Positions 6,885-53,124 of a stretch of 53,124 bases of DNA are shown here, piece by piece. The position numbers were made by a program, and so were the translations under genes. Where the stretch lies: IMG/VR virus record IMGVR_UViG_3300014572_000006. One strand, written 5' to 3'. This stretch comes from a virus. The notes below the pieces were generated by a model that was not told the DNA's origin, made no database searches, and was given only the letters and a program-made list of their open reading frames with translations. The number at the start of each line of letters is the position of its first letter. Position 1 is the stretch's first letter.

Positions 6885-7712
6885 TTATTCTCCGTCTACC
6901 CGCACCATGCCCTCGGGGTACTCCTGAATGAGAGGCCCGCCCCACAGGTCTTTCAGACTGTTTTTCATAAAGACGGGGACCCCGGCAGACTGAGCAACTT
7001 CCGTGATGGCCTCTACCCATTCCCGCTTCGGCTGCTTTCGCTTGCTTCCCGGTCCGGTCATGGCTCCGATGATGACCCAAAGAGGCTCGCCAAGCCGCCG
7101 GAAACCGGCGCAGTCATCCGCGCTGAACGGCTCCAGCAGCGGCTCAATGCTCAGGAACGTGTTGACGCAGGAAGCTCCAAAGTATTCCGTTTCAGGGCCG
7201 GTGATCGTGGTCCCGTACCAGAAGTTCCGCTCCATGGGGAGCTTCCCGGCGTGGCCCATGTCAAGATACCTCTGCGGGTTCTTGGTAAGGAACAGGTAAG
7301 TATGCTGCGGCGCTCGCTTGCAGGCGGCGAAGACATCCTCAATCCAGATGTCCGGCACCCACTCCCCGAACAAGTCTCCCATGCTGGAGACGAAGATCCG
7401 CGCAGGCGTCTTCCGCTTCTCAGGATAGTCCATGGTGTAGGCGTGATAGGTGGGGGCAAAGCCCTTGGGGTACGGGGTGGAGCGCACAGGCTCCCCATTT
7501 TCGTCGCAGAGCTTGGTAGGCTGCTCCACGTAGTAGCACCCGGTCCCCTTGGGTAGTACCTCCAGTGGCTCAATGATGGGCCGCTCGCAGGGGTGCGGGC
7601 CAAACCTGGACACCATGCGCCGGGCGTAGCAGTATTCGCACCCGTGCTTGCACCCCGTTACGGGGTTCCACGTGTGGCTGCACCACTCAATGTCGGTTTT
7701 GTGAATATTCAT
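6885..7712 (-). CDS. Phage Gp37/Gp68 family protein (DUF5131)
   Basis: The N-terminus IEWCSHTWNPVTGCKHGCEYCYA is the hallmark of this family. Confidence 0.8.
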   Translation of the reverse strand: MNIHKTDIEWCSHTWNPVTGCKHGCEYCYARRMVSRFGPHPCERPIIEPLEVLPKGTGCYYVEQPTKLCDENGEPVRSTPYPKGFAPTYHAYTMDYPEKRKTPARIFVSSMGDLFGEWVPDIWIEDVFAACKRAPQHTYLFLTKNPQRYLDMGHAGKLPMERNFWYGTTITGPETEYFGASCVNTFLSIEPLLEPFSADDCAGFRRLGEPLWVIIGAMTGPGSKRKQPKREWVEAITEVAQSAGVPVFMKNSLKDLWGGPLIQEYPEGMVRVDGE

Positions 7713-7922: not shown

Positions 7923-8084
7923 CTACACTCCAAACGCGATTAGAATAGACAGGGCCAGTAGGCCCGCAGATGTAACCTTTGCGCCGTTGCTCCGGTCATT
8001 CATGGTCTTGCCCCCAAAGGTGTAGCAAAATCCAGAAAATGTAATCAGGATGAAGAGGGTCCACGTAAACAGCAGCATCGTCAT
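7923..8084 (-). CDS. 53-aa two-TM membrane peptide, translationally coupled to the MazG-fusion gene
   Basis: My own translation: MTMLLFTWTLFILITFSGFCYTFGGKTMNDRSNGAKVTSAGLLALSILIAFGV. Its ATG overlaps the upstream TGA (ATGA at 8081..8084). It falls below the ORF-track length cutoff. Confidence 0.35.
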   Translation of the reverse strand: MTMLLFTWTLFILITFSGFCYTFGGKTMNDRSNGAKVTSAGLLALSILIAFGV

Positions 8085-8995
8085 TCACCCAGTAGCTCGC
8101 AAAGGTGCTCCAGCTTGGCAATCTCCATGTCGGTGTTGTCACCGAAGATGACGTGGAGCTGGTTCAGCATGATTTCCACATCAGCCCTCTCTTCGGAGAT
8201 CGCCGCCAGGATTTCCGCCTCATCGCCCTGCTCATGGTCCTTGAAGCGCAGATACTTGAGTAGGGCCTTTTGCAGCTCGCTCATCTCTTCTACCGCCATG
8301 AGGATTTGAGCGCTCTCCCCGAACTGCTCCACGGCCTGCTCATAGAGGGCCATTTCCGCTTGCTCCGGGGTCTCATCCACTCCAGGCTGCGGACCGTCGG
8401 CGGGCCGGATTTCTGCCGCTCTCTTCTTGTCCTCGGCGTCAAGGATAGATGCCAAGATGTCAGATTTCAGAGTTAAAGCCGGGCGCACACCCCCGCTGCC
8501 GAAGTACGCGTCGCTGCAGTAGAGGCTCCCGTCCGAGTTCACGTAGCGCACGAAAGAGGTCCCGGAACTCTTCGGGGTCCCGTCCGGCGTGATGAGCCAG
8601 CGCCAATGCTCCTGCGCGGGGTGCAGATCGCGGGTCTGCCGGTACTCATCGGCGGTGAGCATCGTTACCTTGTCCAGACAGTTTCCGTAGTCCCGGAGGC
8701 CGTCATCGGCGGTCAGGTCGCGGTAGGTGGGGACAATGGCGTCTTTCAGGCCGGGGCATTCAGCGATGAGGTTATCCAGGAACTCGCCGTTGAGCCGCTT
8801 CCGCAGGCTCGCCTTGTTCCAGTCGTTGCAGTCATTCTCATCAAAGGGGGCCTGGAAGGCGTCTTCGGTGGCCTCGCAGAAGTAGAGATCGGAGCAGCCC
8901 GGCATCGGCGCCGGAGTGGTCCGCAGCACAATCCAGTCCAGACCGGCCACGTGGAACACGTCTCCGTACTTGAAAGTCCTCTTTTGCTCTTGCAT
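8081..8995 (-). CDS. Second DGR target: VR-bearing ligand-binding-type domain fused to a C-terminal MazG-like NTP pyrophosphohydrolase domain
   Basis: Contains VR2 (WRWLITP...VRYVNSDGSLYCSDAYFGSGGVRPALTL). The C-terminus carries LMAVEEMSELQKALLKYLR...ISEERADVEIMLNQL, a MazG-type pattern. Confidence 0.8.
   Translation of the reverse strand: MQEQKRTFKYGDVFHVAGLDWIVLRTTPAPMPGCSDLYFCEATEDAFQAPFDENDCNDWNKASLRKRLNGEFLDNLIAECPGLKDAIVPTYRDLTADDGLRDYGNCLDKVTMLTADEYRQTRDLHPAQEHWRWLITPDGTPKSSGTSFVRYVNSDGSLYCSDAYFGSGGVRPALTLKSDILASILDAEDKKRAAEIRPADGPQPGVDETPEQAEMALYEQAVEQFGESAQILMAVEEMSELQKALLKYLRFKDHEQGDEAEILAAISEERADVEIMLNQLHVIFGDNTDMEIAKLEHLCELLGE
8476..8554 (-). repeat. DGR variable region 2 (VR2)
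   Basis: Aligns without gaps to TR 31185..31263. There are 11 differences, all where the TR coding strand has A. The 3' GC-rich block is identical. Confidence 0.85.
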
Positions 8996-9014: not shown

Positions 9015-9197
9015 TTATTTCCCCGGCTTCTGGCCGTGGTTTATCTGTGGTGGCTTGACCTGTCCGCACCGGGTCGGGTGGTTCAAGCAGGGGTTCTTGC
9101 AATTCTTATCCCGGTAGCCGCAATCGGCGCAGCAGATGTTTCCGTGCCGCCGGTCACAGTTGAAGAGCTTACATCGGCGTGGTGCTGTCTTACTCAC
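9015..9197 (-). CDS. Small Cys-rich hypothetical protein
   Basis: 60-aa ORF with 10 Cys (CKLFNCDRRHGNICCADCGYRDKNCKNPC). Confidence 0.4.
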   Translation of the reverse strand: MSKTAPRRCKLFNCDRRHGNICCADCGYRDKNCKNPCLNHPTRCGQVKPPQINHGQKPGK

Positions 9198-9476: not shown

Positions 9477-10067
9477 TTACCTCCCAAAGTAGATACCGCA
9501 GTCCTCGCAGTAGATGACGTCGGCTCCCTGTTCAAATTCGGCCTGGTAGATGTACCCCTGCCCGTAAAGGTCCGAGTGCTCACCGCTCAGGACGTCCCGT
9601 GCGGTCTCCCAGGCCCGCGCAACGGCGTGGGCCTCTCCGGGCTTGACGGCCCGGTCCGGCCACACTACGCCAGTCCAATAAAAGCGCCCATACTGCCGGT
9701 AGGCCGTGAGCACTTCCTCCACGGTGTCCGGGAAACGGTCATCCTCCATCCGGTTCAGGATGACATCGCCCACACGATGGCGGCACAGGTCGCAGCAGGC
9801 GTCCCCGCCCGCCTCCTGGTAGATCGCGCAGGCCAGCATCTCAACCTCTTCCTCGGTCCAACCGGGATAGGGCGAGACGGTGGGGACCGGCGATGCGGTG
9901 AGGGTAGGCGTCGGGTCCACCATCAGGACCGGAAGCTCCGTCACGTCCGCAGGCTCAGCAAAGGCCGCACCTCTGGCCTGCCCTGGCGTAAACAGGGCGC
10001 TCACAAACACCAGGGCGCACAGGGCGCCACAAGCAAGGGTCATCGTCCGTTCTTTCACTTGTTCCAT
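9477..10067 (-). CDS. Secreted SleB-family cell-wall hydrolase (Hydrolase_2 domain)
   Basis: N-terminal signal-like segment (LACGALCALVFVSALF). Then LACAIYQEAGGD...VGDVILNRMEDDRFPDTVEEVLTAYRQY. Confidence 0.7.
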   Translation of the reverse strand: MEQVKERTMTLACGALCALVFVSALFTPGQARGAAFAEPADVTELPVLMVDPTPTLTASPVPTVSPYPGWTEEEVEMLACAIYQEAGGDACCDLCRHRVGDVILNRMEDDRFPDTVEEVLTAYRQYGRFYWTGVVWPDRAVKPGEAHAVARAWETARDVLSGEHSDLYGQGYIYQAEFEQGADVIYCEDCGIYFGR

Positions 10068-28269: not shown

Positions 28270-29967
28270 TTAAATGTAGCTTGCGGACAGAGAGTAGCAG
28301 GCGATGCTTTCATACCCTCCGGCCTTGGTGATCTGGACGCGGACGCCCACGGCAAAGCTATCCGCAGTCTTCGCGGAATTGCTGAAAATGTGCTTGAGGC
28401 CGAGCTGGGCAGTCTCCCAGGTCGGCTCTTCGTCGTTGTAGTTGTTGCAGACCTGGATTGTCACGCCGTCCTCATGGGCGTTGTACCGCATGGAGACAAG
28501 GATTTTCTGCGCGGCGGCGCTGGTGTCATCCACTTTCCAGTCAAAGTCGATGATGGAGACGGACCGGGTAAAGGTGATGGTACGGGTGACGCTGTTCCCG
28601 GCGCTGTCCGAGACCTTGATAGTCATGGTGTGCGGTCCGGTGAGGGCGGCGAACTGCGCCGCCGTGAGCGCAAAGGTGTACTGATGGTTCCGCTCTGCCG
28701 GGGTGATAGTTTTAAGGGCCACACCGTCCAGGCTCTCTACGATGGTGAGCGTGTCTCCGGCGTCCCCGTCGTTGACCGTGTACTGGAACGAGGGCGGCGT
28801 AGTCACCACGCCGAGCTGCTGATCGCTGCCGCTCACCGTCGGGTCTACGTTGTGGGTGACGGTCCGGGTAGGGCTGGTGGTGTATGCGCTATACGCGGCC
28901 TTGCTGTCCTTGGCGCGGACCCGGTAGGCTACCGTGTTCATCGCCGTGGTGATCGTGTCGCTGAACTGCGTCGCGGCTCCGTCATAGATTTTGGACCATG
29001 CGCCGCTGTTGTACTGCCGCTCAAGCTCGTAGCTTACGGCGTCGCTGTCCGGGTCCACCGACGCCGCCCAGGAGACGGTGAGACCTTTACCGCTCCGCAC
29101 GTCCTCTGGCACGGTGATGGACGGGGGCGTGGTGGGGGCATTATTCCAGATGATGGTGTAGTACCCCTCGCTGTCCGGTGCATCAGATACCAAGATGTCA
29201 GATGACAGATTCAAAGCCGGGCGCACACCCCCGTGGCCGTAGTACGCGAGGACGCTGTTGAGGCTCCCGTCCGAGTGCACGCAGCGCACGCTGTTCGCGT
29301 ACGACGAATACGGGGAGCGGAGCCACCACCACCAATTCTGCGACGCGCTCAAGTCACCGGCGGTGTACTCGCTGTTGCTCACGGCCTGGGCGGTAGGCTT
29401 GCACAGGCGGCTTGCGCTGTCGCTGAACATAGCCAGCTTCGTGCCCTCTGCGACGCCGTTCTCCGAGCCGAGGCCGACCTCTGCCATGGAAAGCAAGAAA
29501 ATCTTGTCCTGGACAGTCTCGGACCCGCCGCCGTCCGTGCCGGGCTTTGCGACGGTCAGGGTGGTGGTGAGCAGGGCGGCCAGCATCTCCGCGCCGAAGC
29601 CGGTCAGGAAGCCGGATTGTGCGTCGTACTCGTTGTAGCCGCTCCAGACGTAAGAATTGGACGGGGGCCGGTCATAGCTGTGCTGGGCCTGATACCAGCC
29701 GGTCCCGCTCTTATTGAGCCACTGGCGGATGTTAGCCAGGGAATAGCGGTTGTTGCCGTATCTCTCCCGGTCCGTGTTGCCGCCGCTCTCCATAGCGTCG
29801 AAGCAGCAGATTTTGATGATGCTCTCGGCCACAAGGGTTGTGCTATTGGCGGGATAGCCGGAATGGTTCTTGTCACCGATGACCCAGCCGATGGGGACGC
29901 CGTAATACTTAGTCTTTGTGTCCCGCACTTTCGCCTTTACGGGTAGGGCGCTGATTTTCTGCGGCAT
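28270..29967 (-). CDS. DGR target 1: tail fibre / receptor-binding protein with an internal VR followed by FN3/Ig-like repeats
   Basis: Contains VR1 (WWWWLRSPYSSYANSVRCVHSDGSLNSVLAYYGHGGVRPALNL). An FN3-like segment follows (GLTVSWAASVDPDSDAVSYELERQYNSGAWSKIY). Lies downstream of the baseplate genes. Confidence 0.8.
   Translation of the reverse strand: MPQKISALPVKAKVRDTKTKYYGVPIGWVIGDKNHSGYPANSTTLVAESIIKICCFDAMESGGNTDRERYGNNRYSLANIRQWLNKSGTGWYQAQHSYDRPPSNSYVWSGYNEYDAQSGFLTGFGAEMLAALLTTTLTVAKPGTDGGGSETVQDKIFLLSMAEVGLGSENGVAEGTKLAMFSDSASRLCKPTAQAVSNSEYTAGDLSASQNWWWWLRSPYSSYANSVRCVHSDGSLNSVLAYYGHGGVRPALNLSSDILVSDAPDSEGYYTIIWNNAPTTPPSITVPEDVRSGKGLTVSWAASVDPDSDAVSYELERQYNSGAWSKIYDGAATQFSDTITTAMNTVAYRVRAKDSKAAYSAYTTSPTRTVTHNVDPTVSGSDQQLGVVTTPPSFQYTVNDGDAGDTLTIVESLDGVALKTITPAERNHQYTFALTAAQFAALTGPHTMTIKVSDSAGNSVTRTITFTRSVSIIDFDWKVDDTSAAAQKILVSMRYNAHEDGVTIQVCNNYNDEEPTWETAQLGLKHIFSNSAKTADSFAVGVRVQITKAGGYESIACYSLSASYI
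29214..29321 (-). repeat. DGR variable region 1 (VR1)
   Basis: 108-bp ungapped alignment to TR 31185..31292. There are 12 differences, all where the TR coding strand has A. Confidence 0.9.
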
Positions 29968-31015
29968 GGTTTGACTTTACACTCCTTTCAAAGATGGAGG
30001 CGCAAACCGCGTCGTACTTGGTGATGAGTTCCCGGCATTGGCCGTGGGAAGCGTGAGACCTCCAGCTCTGGTAGCTCTCTTCAATCTGCTTCCGGGTCAT
30101 AGCGCCGTTTTCATACATCACCGCGTATTTCCGCAGCTTGCGCCTCATACGGTCTTTACTGGAACGCCTAACTTTCCGTATTACCTTTCCGGTGTCGGTC
30201 AGGTATGTGTGGAAGCCCAAAAAGTCCAGGCCGTTCCGCAAGGGGAAGATCTGTGTCTTCTGGTTTAGCTCAAGGCCCCTCGGGGTCAAGAGCTGCTCGA
30301 CTTTCCTCCACGCTTCACGAAGCGCCTCCTTACTCTCGCAGATGATATAAAAATCATCCATGTAGCGGCCATAGTACCGCATTCGGAGGACTTCTTTGAC
30401 GTAGTGGTCGAGTTCATTCAGATACAATAGGGCGTACACCTGGGACGATTGATTTCCTATGGGGATGCCGACATTATCAGGGGTGCTATCTATGATAGCG
30501 TCGGACAAGGCCCGGCTCCGTGGGTCCGTGAGCAGCTTATTGACATCTCGCTTGAGAATGTCGTGCCGGATGCTGGCGAAGTAGTGCCGGACATCCGCTT
30601 TCAGGACCCAGCCGTCGGCGCTCCCGTGCTTCCGGTAATACTCCCGCATGAAGTCACGGAGGCGGTCGAGGCCGAAGTGGGTCCCCTTTCCGACTTGGCT
30701 CCCGTAGTTATCCAGGATAAAGGGGCGGCTCAGGACGGGGTAAAGGATGTTGTCACAAAAGGCGTGTTGCACGATTTTGTCCTTGACGCTGTTCGTCTGG
30801 ATGAGACGTCGCTTTGGCTCAAAGACGTAGAACTCATGGTAATTTCCGGGCTTGTAGAGACCGTCCCGCAGCTCAGCTTGCAGGACGGTGATCGCCTCCA
30901 GAGTGTTCAGCTCCACTTTGGCAACGGCGTCTTTCCATCGCTTACCTTTTCTGGTCGCCCGATACGCCGCATAGAGATTAGCGAAGTCATAAACGACTTC
31001 AAAATTCTGTTCCAT
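29909..31015 (-). CDS. DGR reverse transcriptase
   Basis: IPIGNQSSQ (the DGR-specific motif) and RYMDDF (YMDD box). I prefer the ATG at 31015 after AAGGAG; the track start at 31054 is a TTG. Confidence 0.9.
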   Translation of the reverse strand: MEQNFEVVYDFANLYAAYRATRKGKRWKDAVAKVELNTLEAITVLQAELRDGLYKPGNYHEFYVFEPKRRLIQTNSVKDKIVQHAFCDNILYPVLSRPFILDNYGSQVGKGTHFGLDRLRDFMREYYRKHGSADGWVLKADVRHYFASIRHDILKRDVNKLLTDPRSRALSDAIIDSTPDNVGIPIGNQSSQVYALLYLNELDHYVKEVLRMRYYGRYMDDFYIICESKEALREAWRKVEQLLTPRGLELNQKTQIFPLRNGLDFLGFHTYLTDTGKVIRKVRRSSKDRMRRKLRKYAVMYENGAMTRKQIEESYQSWRSHASHGQCRELITKYDAVCASIFERSVKSNHAAENQRPTRKGESAGHKD

Positions 31016-31184
31016 AATAGGCTCCTTGCGCCGCTGGTAGCGCCGAAGCTCCAATGGGCGAGCCTCAGCGCGTCGGCGCTATGTGTTTATCCCCGCCCTG
31101 TCAGGCCGGGACCGGATACGTCCTCCTTTGATGGTGGGCTTCTGCTTTCTCCCTTTCGGGTTACTCGGTCACGGTATTCCACCG

Positions 31185-31292
31185 AAGCCGGGCGCACACC
31201 CCTGTTGCCGTTGTACGCGTTGTTGTTGTTGAGGCTCCCGTCCGAGTTCACGTAGCGCACGTTGTTCGCGTTCGACGAATACGGGGAGCGGA
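31185..31292 (-). repeat. DGR template repeat (TR)
   Basis: AAC-rich reading (SNANNVRYVNSDGSLNNNNAYNGNRGVRPA). Donor sequence for VR1 and VR2. Confidence 0.9.
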
Positions 31293-31344
31293 CAAGGCAC
31301 ACCCAGGGGGATGCACGTACAGGACGCACCCGTGGCCTCTCAAA

Positions 31345-31773
31345 TCATCGCCGTGCGCCGCCGGTCTGAACTTGCTGCCGGAAGCGCTCGGCGTCCTTTT
31401 TGCGCCACGACGCGGCAAGGTTCTTTGCGTCGGTGGTGAGGCCCGTCCAATACTCACACCGCCTGATGTCGATATACCCCTGTTCCAGAGCTATATCCAG
31501 GAAGTTCAGGAAGACCTTGCAGTTGGTCAAGACCTCTTTCTGGAGGTCAAGGCGCGTGTTCATCTCAGCGACGGTCCGAGGGTATATCTCGTTGGCCGCT
31601 ATGATGTCATGCAGGATTTGGATTGAGAGGTTCTGCATTCTCTGGCAGAGGGTGAAGCGCACCTTTTTAGGGAACAGCTTAGTGTTGTTCGTGAGCTGCA
31701 AGGTATGGTTTACCAGGTCTTTTGCCTTGCAGATGATGGTGAGTTCACCGTGCCGGTTCTGCAAACAGGACAC
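31345..31773 (-). CDS. avd: Avd-like four-helix-bundle accessory variability determinant
   Basis: 142-aa basic helical protein immediately upstream of the TR (AKDLVNHTLQLTNNTKLFPKKVRFTLCQRMQNLSIQILHDI). Confidence 0.75.
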   Translation of the reverse strand: MSCLQNRHGELTIICKAKDLVNHTLQLTNNTKLFPKKVRFTLCQRMQNLSIQILHDIIAANEIYPRTVAEMNTRLDLQKEVLTNCKVFLNFLDIALEQGYIDIRRCEYWTGLTTDAKNLAASWRKKDAERFRQQVQTGGARR

Positions 31774-52863: not shown

Positions 52864-53124
52864 TTTGCCTCTCCTTTCGTCGGAGGGGGCAGGCGAATAC
52901 CGAGCCGGTGCTCAAACGCTTCCCGCGCTCGCTGAGACAGTCCCATGCGTGAGCCGTCCGGGTAGGGAAGCTCAAATTCAAAGTCCAGCGCAGCGGCCAG
53001 GGCCGCAGGGTCCACAATCGGGTCTGCCGCCTCCATGTACCAGAATTTTGTTATCATCTCCAGGCGCTTCACGGTACGGAAGCACGGGGCGAAGATTGCC
53101 CGCATCTCTTCCTCGGTGTGGCCC
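52860..53124 (-). CDS. 3' part of the ParB-methyltransferase fusion ORF (continues from 1377..1 across the junction)
   Basis: In frame with the 1..1377 ORF through the 82-bp overlap. Its stop TGA overlaps the cmoA-like ATG (ATGA at 52860..52863). Confidence 0.8.
   Translation of the reverse strand, partial: GHTEEEMRAIFAPCFRTVKRLEMITKFWYMEAADPIVDPAALAAALDFEFELPYPDGSRMGLSQRAREAFEHRLGIRLPPPTKGEAK
53043..53124. repeat. Terminal overlap, identical to 1..82
   Basis: Same comparison as for 1..82. Confidence 0.95.

Follow-up and report, generated by a model that had tools for sequence, protein, structure and literature searches.

Why is a second variable region of a phage diversity-generating retroelement (DGR) found in a gene of the replication block, far from the retroelement itself, and what could the protein diversified there be doing? 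This question is raised by IMG/VR virus record IMGVR_UViG_3300014572_000006, of which all 53,124 bases were analyzed (the window). Since the same 82 bases are present at both ends, the phage genome in the window is complete, with a size of about 53,042 bp; as read from this repeat, it is circularly permuted or terminally redundant. The single DGR of the phage comprises a template repeat (TR), a reverse transcriptase (RT) gene, a gene for an Avd-like accessory protein and a first target gene (target 1) with variable region VR1, all on the minus strand (Table 1). The second variable region, VR2, lies in a gene for a protein of 304 amino acids (aa), separated from the TR by 22.7 kb and from VR1 by 20.7 kb; a preliminary description, made by reading the sequence, had placed this gene 21 kb from the TR. 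VR2 is almost certainly a live in-trans target of the DGR, and its host protein very probably consists of a DUF6273 domain and a C-terminal MazG-like domain.

Active diversification of the remote variable region

VR2 is located in frame within its open reading frame (ORF), starting from codon 148. A computed, ungapped alignment of VR2 with TR positions 31185-31263 reproduced the 68 identities in 79 positions that had previously been counted by hand. All 11 differences fell on the 21 adenines among the 79 positions of the TR coding (minus) strand, and the chance that 11 random positions all hit adenine is P = 3.9e-8. VR1 differed from the TR at 12 adenine sites and nowhere else. The adenine-free, GC-rich block at the 3′ end, GGGGTGTGCGCCCGGCTT, was confirmed to be identical in TR, VR1 and VR2. 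The full TR is used by VR1, while VR2 takes only its 3′ part of about 77 nt. The first two differences (AA in the TR, TT in VR2; codon F148) were almost fixed in 33 genomes and probably mark the 5′ edge of the rewritten tract. The tract itself probably covers 8476-8552 (about 77 nt, codons 149-173), with nine differences in this genome. The 12 variable codons of VR2 allow about 1.3e11 different peptides.

TR, VR1 and VR2 copies from many contigs were collected by 18-mer scans of IMG/VR and of JGI/ENA metagenomes, and the VR2 count was restricted to 33 independent copies with genuine VR2 flanks. Each of the 33 copies was distinct from all others. Compared to the TR, 362 differences occurred at adenine sites (52% of cells) and 16 at non-adenine sites (0.8%; odds ratio 130); the confinement of VR2 variation to TR-adenine positions, anticipated from one genome, was thus found in related genomes. 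The 300-nt flanks of the VR2 copies differed by 0.7-4%, and the TR was nearly invariant across 30+ contigs. When VR2 was compared with the TR of its own contig, which was possible for 12 contigs, 113 differences were at adenine and 4 at non-adenine positions. The block GGGGTGTGCGCCCGGCTT was without change in all recovered copies, the block itself having been the search pattern for their recovery.

The direction of information flow could be read from two independent, non-mutagenic polymorphisms that mark the TR. GTG>GTC was found together in TR, VR1 and VR2 of three contigs, and GCG>GCA together in the three repeats of one 204-kb contig, with zero discordant contigs. Since TR markers had been copied into VR1 and VR2, which a fossil repeat could not achieve, information flows from the TR to VR2. 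At the protein level, the 90%-identity cluster of the nearest homologue contained 7,330 distinct sequences. Among 30 near-identical proteins of this cluster, hypervariation was limited to aa 148-168, and positions 153, 159-162, 165 and 167 took 7-9 residues each. Outside the variable region, substitutions were sporadic, and no position showed more than three alleles.

That VR2 is a fossil or a chance repeat, or that its gene is an assembly chimera generated at the repeat, can practically be dismissed. Metagenome assemblies do form chimeras at the TR/VR repeat (P0084, P0120, P0135; L061, L072, L077), and public assemblies contain fusions at TR/VR1/VR2 in which the N-terminal part of the VR2 protein is followed by the C-terminal part of the tentaclin-type target 1 or the reverse. 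However, the 33 copies all differ, and do so at adenine sites, TR markers have been copied into VR2, and the 304-aa architecture is shared by an isolate genome and many long contigs. Full-length homologues with 59-96% identity were found in hundreds of contigs and in an isolate genome.

Some irregular repeat copies were encountered in the same collection. Further chimeric forms consisted of a TR body with a VR2 flank or of a duplicated VR; the joined-repeat assemblies are most likely artefacts of the repeat and of VR heterogeneity, and real recombination may contribute. VR2 of contig VOFI01001013.1 (L079) carried an indel and a stop. An extra GGC codon was present in VR1 (L003, L065) and VR2 (L015) of different contigs, matching TRs for which were not among the recovered copies. 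A non-adenine change, GTG>GCG at the codon-152 position, recurred in VR2 of L068 (ORNG01000183) and L147/L151 (CEAP01006319) and in VR1 of L017, and the site may be a minor hot spot of non-adenine misincorporation beside a TAC codon. In L104 (contig OQET01007346, 3.2 kb), a diverged TR (AACGTCCGCAACGTCAATTCGGACGGCTCTTTGAAC...) stands beside a VR1 that matches the standard TR and not its own; this contig is either a chimera or the result of TR replacement.

Recognition of a target by the DGR would have to distinguish VR from TR, and the sequence 3′ of the repeats was compared accordingly. Directly downstream of VR1 and VR2, 24 of 30 nt were identical, while either flank shared only 7-8 of 30 with that of the TR; past 30 nt, the identity of the VR1 and VR2 flanks was at background. 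The same 30 nt also encode a conserved peptide motif, L-x-L-x-S-D-I-L. This flank could be the VR-specific part of an element like the initiation of mutagenic homing (IMH) element, with the reservation that a conserved peptide is encoded there too, and GGGGTGTGCGCCCGGCTT is likely the GC-rich part of the same target-recognition element. Hairpins or cruciforms 3′ of VR1, VR2 and the TR were not detected, folding energies being no better than those of shuffled sequence.

Domain architecture of the VR2 protein

The gene is preceded by an AGGAGG ribosome-binding site 8 nt upstream of its ATG. Its N-terminal part matched PF19789 (DUF6273) at residues 113-178 with 32.1 bits against a cut-off of 23.5, and phrog_9958 over residues 1-227 with an expect value (E) of 2e-78. 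The variable region is located at the C-terminal end of this domain. In the structure model of the N-terminal domain (predicted local distance difference test (pLDDT) of 83, predicted template modeling score of 0.82), it forms a predicted beta-hairpin with strands 148-152 and 158-162. The sole significant Foldseek match of this domain in the PDB was the IgA peptidase of T. ramosa (chain 9qa6, E 2e-5), the N-terminal domain of which is DUF6273. Animal C-type lectins were among the matches only weakly, and the published C-type lectin assignment (PMC10743442) was not confirmed by Foldseek against the PDB. A PDB sequence search with the whole protein returned nothing significant, and a search with the profile of its family returned only a weak match to the DUF6273-like IgA protease. 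The preliminary description had likened the first ~175 residues to the N-terminal domain of target 1. A relation between the two DUF6273 domains was indeed found by BLASTP (45% identity, E 6e-14); it covers residues 106-191, not the first ~175. An Ig-like domain was found neither by Pfam nor in the structure model. The protein is also without hydrophobic or transmembrane segment and without signal peptide (maximal Kyte-Doolittle mean over 19 residues of 0.84), as had been noted before. The linker to the C-terminal domain is acidic, of low complexity and poorly modeled.

The C-terminal domain was modeled as four helices (residues 210-225, 227-254, 259-284 and 288-301) with pLDDT values of 84-96. 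It matched phrog_2245, "nucleoside triphosphate pyrophosphohydrolase", with E 1e-17. The top 50 Foldseek matches in the PDB were MazG-like enzymes throughout, with probabilities of up to 0.99, and included RS21-C6/DCTPP1, DR2231, iMazG, E. coli MazG and Sulfolobus MazG. Small viral nucleoside triphosphate pyrophosphohydrolases (NTP-PPases) in BFVD matched with E 6e-6, TM scores of 0.66-0.78 and root mean square deviations of 2-3 Å. The domain carries the acidic motif E237-M-S-E240 ... E269-R-A-D272 with a spacing of 28 residues, the same spacing as in RS21-C6. Among 19 fused homologues, E236, E240, E269 and D272 never varied and E237 hardly ever did; 12 homologues, stand-alone or fused, agreed throughout the EE..E / E..D columns. 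Prophages of Clostridia encode stand-alone homologues of 95-113 aa with 35-59% identity, and one relative matched PF03819, though only with E 2.7e-4. A MazG type had been proposed for the last ~90 residues. The phrog_2245 match, the fold and the conserved acidic residues bear this out for about 95 residues; the Pfam MazG models do not. From sequence and model, catalytic activity as an NTP pyrophosphohydrolase is moderately favored. Clostridia metagenome-assembled genomes (MAGs) contain the same MazG-like domain behind other N-terminal modules, namely a ~135-aa domain and a Cys-rich zinc-ribbon-like segment (L033 9590-10318; L037 6514-7011), and because of these fusions the small MazG-like enzyme appears to be a frequent fusion partner in general.

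For a census of the N-terminal family, an exhaustive HMMER search was performed with residues 1-195. It yielded 919 clusters at 50% identity, and the best 150 of them were examined. Six of these carried the MazG-like C-terminal domain. One carried a pyrophosphatase of a different family at the N-terminus (found in at least five samples, beside a Dam methylase), two carried nucleoside 2-deoxyribosyltransferase-like domains (DUF7768/DUF4406) and one carried DUF3310, matching PHROGs named "nucleotide kinase"; DUF3310 is also present in nd12_tgt2, a published small target of phage nd12. A Lar-like restriction-alleviation domain and a SleB-like hydrolase (P0401) were found once each, and three clusters were tentaclin-like. 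As assigned by these sequence matches, the identifiable non-structural partners of the DUF6273 domain are mostly nucleotide enzymes. Stand-alone phrog_9958 proteins of 200-235 aa are common. A homologue search with gp24 of phage Toutatis retrieved only close relatives of 215 aa and no new architecture. In six small DUF6273 proteins (P0311, P0340, P0356, P0359, P0364, P0397), the C-terminus is extended by a common, unannotated segment in which a motif like "A-x-DM(I/M)RHIAAAW" recurs; this segment is a further frequent partner of the domain.

Table 1. Features of the window around the remote target gene and the DGR cassette.
Feature	Position	Strand	Basis or remark
VR2 host-protein gene, 304 aa	8081..8995	-	DUF6273 domain, acidic linker, MazG-like domain
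DUF6273 / phrog_9958 domain, aa 1-185	8441..8995	-	profile matches, domain model
VR2	8476..8554	-	68/79 identical to TR 31185-31263
A-free GC-rich 3′ block GGGGTGTGCGCCCGGCTT	8476..8493	-	same in TR, VR1 (29214-29231) and VR2
30-nt flank directly 3′ of VR2	8446..8475	-	common to VR1 flank, not TR flank
Predicted MazG-like all-alpha NTP pyrophosphohydrolase domain, aa 210-304	8084..8368	-	four helices; E237-x-x-E240 ... E269-x-x-D272
53-aa ORF, two hydrophobic segments	7923..8084	-	phrog_38445 E 3e-36; hydropathy
TR	31185..31297	-	~110 nt; repeat family and three-way alignment with VR1 and VR2
Avd-like accessory protein gene	31345..31773	-	Pfam bAvd E 1.5e-6, 29 bits vs curated cut-off 40
DGR RT gene	29909..31054	-	Pfam RVT_1 E 2e-19; IGNQSSQ and YMDD motifs
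Target 1, tentaclin-type, 565 aa	28270..29967	-	Pfam DUF6273 E 9e-38, Big_9; phrog_10993 E 8e-253
VR1	29214..29326	-	in N-terminal DUF6273 domain of target 1, Ig-like domains after
Exact 82-bp direct terminal repeat	1-82 and 53043-53124		

Genomic setting and possible functions

The VR2 gene is part of a tightly packed minus-strand block for replication and recombination. Genes for a DnaD-like helicase loader, an SbcCD-type nuclease and a transcriptional regulator are located upstream, and genes for a DUF5131 protein and a Holliday-junction resolvase downstream, in agreement with the placement among early/replication genes in the preliminary description. A convincing terminator or promoter between the VR2 gene and the replication genes was not found. 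The stop of the VR2 gene and the start of the 53-aa ORF overlap as ATGA, and the two hydrophobic segments noted earlier for that ORF were also confirmed; the overlap suggests translational coupling of the two genes. Three genes downstream of the VR2 gene, the DUF5131 protein (6885-7712, minus strand; Pfam E 2e-41) matches the PADLOC candidate-defense models PDC-M41B (E 3e-40) and PDC-M30B (E 2e-37). Directly upstream of the VR2 gene, a cysteine-rich ORF of 60 aa (9015-9197, minus strand) is without match in Pfam, PHROGs and PADLOC. A SleB-type cell-wall hydrolase (Pfam Hydrolase_2; 9477-10067, minus strand) with an N-terminal hydrophobic segment overlaps the gene of the DnaD-like loader.

In the DGR cassette, the Avd-like gene lies upstream of the TR, as is canonical. 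Since its bAvd match is under the Pfam cut-off, its assignment as Avd is weaker than that of the RT. Target 1 had been described as a tail fiber, which was not demonstrated. Its family has been named tentaclin, with an N-terminal DUF6273 domain and three Ig-like domains (PMC10743442). Target 1 corresponds to this description, with Ig-like domains following the N-terminal DUF6273 domain, and the 304-aa VR2 protein does not. The PHROG name of the target 1 family is "Hoc-like head decoration".

The isolate Pseudoflavonifractor sp. Marseille-P3106 has a copy of the VR2 gene with 95% identity within a scaffold of 415 kb, and a further copy was found in a Flavonifractor MAG. Because of these copies, the phage is regarded as a temperate phage of gut Oscillospiraceae (Pseudoflavonifractor/Flavonifractor). 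A megablast search with the first 25 kb found no close GenBank phage relative at the DNA level. By protein, the nearest named phages are the Faecalibacterium phages Toutatis, Lelie and Brigit and phages nd4 and nd12.

The following sequence of events would account for these findings. The Avd-TR-RT cassette (29.9-31.8 kb) would generate adenine-mutagenized cDNA from the TR. This cDNA would replace VR1 in the adjacent tentaclin gene and also the 3′ homology of about 77 nt in gene 8081-8995, 22.7 kb away, with recognition probably occurring via the common GC-rich block and the 30-nt flank of both VRs, which the TR lacks. As an outcome, 12 codons would be rewritten in a beta-hairpin of the DUF6273 (lectin-like) binding domain. 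During infection or lysogeny, the VR2 protein would form oligomers and work inside the cell as a nucleotide pyrophosphohydrolase, with the location, partner or activity of the enzyme set by the ligand of the variable domain, in phage-host or phage-phage conflict. As a whole, this explanation, a live in-trans target that encodes an intracellular, ligand-directed pyrophosphohydrolase, is moderately preferred here. Its parts differ in strength. The VR2 protein is predicted, with good confidence, to be intracellular and absent from the virion: since it is fused to a MazG-like domain, and its relatives to other nucleotide enzymes, an intracellular role is favored over receptor binding. Cytoplasmic action, catalysis, oligomerization and ligand-directed function are what we infer from architecture and context, and the ligand-directed role in conflict is no better than tentative. 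The preliminary description had suggested, as its own inference, that the protein is an intracellular effector of hypervariable kind, through which MazG activity would be directed to a variable host factor or to defense signaling. This is not supported as stated and stays conjectural; the support added here is circumstantial and consists of the fusion-partner pattern only.

Several observations weigh against an intracellular, ligand-directed enzyme. The Foldseek matches of the C-terminal domain in the PDB have E-values of only 0.1-0.8. A PDB profile search with this domain returned six MazG-like chains, all sub-threshold (E 0.1-0.8), and the Pfam and NCBIfam MazG models, with E up to 10, matched neither the whole protein nor the isolated C-terminal domain; these models also miss an annotated Clostridium phage NTP-PPase homologue. 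PADLOC defense models gave zero matches to the VR2 protein with E up to 0.01. Most relatives of the N-terminal domain, including Toutatis gp24, Lelie orf58 and nd4_tgt2, are without an enzyme domain, and the family can therefore fulfil its core role without the enzyme. The partners may reflect merely genes that are adjacent in the replication module, and short metagenome contigs are the source of some of the predicted fusions. Room for an envelope-related role may be left by the downstream ORF with two hydrophobic segments and by the nearby secreted SleB-like hydrolase. Finally, the published guess for the small targets is that of a receptor binder (PMC10743442; bioRxiv 10.1101/2024.10.15.618418).

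Taken up in full, this guess would make the small target an extracellular receptor-binding or adhesion protein, acting on the virion or after lysis, with the C-terminal domain as an oligomerization or attachment module. MazG-like bundles oligomerize, which would provide avidity, the variable DUF6273 hairpin and the TR are the same as those of the virion-type tentaclin, and a secreted SleB-like hydrolase and the ORF with two hydrophobic segments are encoded nearby. An Mtd-like role has been suggested in print (PMC10743442; bioRxiv 10.1101/2024.10.15.618418). However, the gene is a member of the replication module and remote from structural genes, here as well as in nd4, Toutatis and Lelie, and the protein has no signal peptide. 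The catalytic acidic residues are invariant over more than 40% sequence divergence, although a scaffold would not need them, and the other partners of the domain are nucleotide enzymes and not virion modules. A beta-prism or beta-sandwich attachment domain as in Mtd (PMC10743442) is absent as well, and a receptor binder is accordingly considered quite unlikely. The fusion might instead be a tolerated accident of adjacency, in which the two halves are independent and the enzyme sanitizes the dNTP pool. Both halves are commonly found on their own, as phrog_9958 proteins of 200-235 aa and as MazG-like proteins of 95-113 aa. The C-terminal domain has a stand-alone homologue in Clostridium phage phiCT19406B that is encoded one gene downstream of a DnaD-like loader, near the loader as is the fused gene here, and the poorly modeled acidic low-complexity linker is also in line with an accident. 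That the C-terminal fusion was kept in six clusters at or below 50% identity, that a second, independent fusion places a pyrophosphatase of a different family at the opposite end and that several further partners are nucleotide enzymes as well makes such an accident unlikely.

A function in prophage immunity or superinfection exclusion would, by analogy with bacterial systems, have the variable domain sense an incoming phage or mobile element by one of its proteins and the MazG-like effector deplete or alter nucleotides. The phage is temperate, as indicated by the 95%-identical copy in the Marseille-P3106 scaffold, and the neighboring DUF5131 gene matches PADLOC candidate models. Moreover, cytoplasmic DGR-diversified C-type lectin (CLec) sensors with effectors are predicted in bacteria (PMC7159879, PMC10907252), and a non-structural DGR target of Quimbyvirus is located in a defense-related island (PMC8008677). 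On the other hand, the VR2 protein itself is without PADLOC match and has no NTPase switch or adaptor domain. Its gene lies within a same-strand operon for lytic-cycle replication with no obvious promoter of its own, and the small MazG-like homologues are ordinary genes of prophage replication modules, all of which makes immunity improbable as the function.

The preferred reading of an intracellular, ligand-directed pyrophosphohydrolase can be extended beyond this protein. Phage DGRs might diversify a whole class of intracellular enzymes, with the DUF6273 module aiming or gating nucleotide enzymes at fast-evolving intracellular targets such as host defense or competing phages. This class would cover MazG-like domains (in two independent arrangements), nucleoside 2-deoxyribosyltransferase-like and DUF3310 domains, and it is put forward as a rather doubtful generalization. 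If true, it would constitute an antibody-like arm of counter-defense or immunity, distinct from the known tropism switching by DGRs, and phage DGRs would diversify intracellular activity besides host range. The small second target is a core gene of abundant human-gut phages and has so far been assumed to be a receptor binder. The enzyme fusion, together with the nucleotide-enzyme partners of the relatives, provides a first concrete and testable clue to intracellular work of the small targets. Experiments are feasible with the cultured lysogen Pseudoflavonifractor sp. Marseille-P3106, which has the 95%-identical copy.

Comparison with known systems

A remote, non-structural DGR target in a phage, the novelty of which had been implied in the preliminary description, is already published for nd4/nd12, Lelie/CP11, Toutatisvirus and Quimbyvirus. 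In nd4/nd12, one TR serves two genes, that of a tentaclin beside the RT and that of a remote, small DUF6273 protein (Baykov et al. 2023, PMC10743442), and the same two-target layout exists in Lelie and CP11 (PMC11792537). In Toutatisvirus, 17,480 nt separate the second target from the TR, and 98.8% of 173 genomes contain it (bioRxiv 10.1101/2024.10.15.618418). The small targets of nd4/nd12, Lelie/CP11 and Toutatis resemble the VR2 protein, being phrog_9958/DUF6273 proteins with 30-40% identity by tblastn; nd4_tgt2, Lelie orf58 and Toutatis gp24 fall into the same PHROG. In nd4/nd12, Lelie and Toutatis, the VR is likewise at the C-terminal end of the domain, the TR is common with a large tentaclin and the gene is remote. 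The small targets of nd4, Lelie and Toutatis are found among methyltransferase, polymerase-exonuclease and replication genes and, as here, form huge clusters at 90% identity. Two differences are apparent. The published small targets comprise 215-294 aa and carry no enzyme domain (nd12_tgt2 has an N-terminal DUF3310), whereas a MazG-like fusion is present here and in at least six clusters at 50% identity, and the host genus here is Pseudoflavonifractor/Flavonifractor, unlike that of the nd4/nd12, Lelie and Toutatis phages. Lelie orf59, downstream of the small target, was considered as a split-off MazG and rejected, as it showed no similarity and belongs to phrog_25385. Full-text literature searches found no paper in which MazG or a pyrophosphohydrolase is connected with a DGR target. 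New here are the MazG-like fusion of a remote small DGR target and the wider pattern of nucleotide-enzyme partners.

Quimbyvirus also has one target within the structural module as well as one distal, non-structural target, a C-type lectin among nucleases and methyltransferases for which a role in conflict was proposed (Benler et al. 2021, PMC8008677). It differs in being an unrelated Bacteroides phage, in that its target is without a recognizable second domain and in that its RT is frameshifted. With BPP-1, the present DGR shares adenine-specific mutagenic retrohoming, the adenine-free GC-rich element at the 3′ end of the VR, the order Avd-TR-RT and a VR-side flank unlike the TR-side flank. 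BPP-1 has a single adjacent target, the trimeric tail-fiber tip protein Mtd, with the VR at the extreme C-terminus, whereas the target here is remote and non-structural; unlike in BPP-1, a hairpin downstream of the VR was not detectable.

The C-terminal domain resembles RS21-C6/DCTPP1, iMazG, DR2231, Sulfolobus SSO3215 and phage NTP-PPases in being a predicted four-helix domain of about 95 aa with an EXXE...EXXD motif. Unlike these small MazG-like enzymes, it is without Pfam MazG match and fused to a hypervariable binding domain. In bacteria, predicted cytoplasmic DGR-diversified CLec sensors are joined to other domains (Kaur et al. 2020, PMC7159879; Dore et al. 2024, PMC10907252), and the VR2 protein is similar in that a predicted cytoplasmic DGR-diversified domain is covalently joined to a functional domain. 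The bacterial systems are chromosomal, with an FGE-type CLec at the C-terminus of STAND-, vWA- or MoxR-linked proteins and with peptidase or TIR effectors. In contrast, the system described here is phage-borne, uses a DUF6273-type domain and a putative nucleotide pyrophosphohydrolase and has no NTPase switch. If the proposed intracellular role holds true, phage DGRs would be linked to the cytoplasmic DGR-diversified sensors proposed in bacteria.

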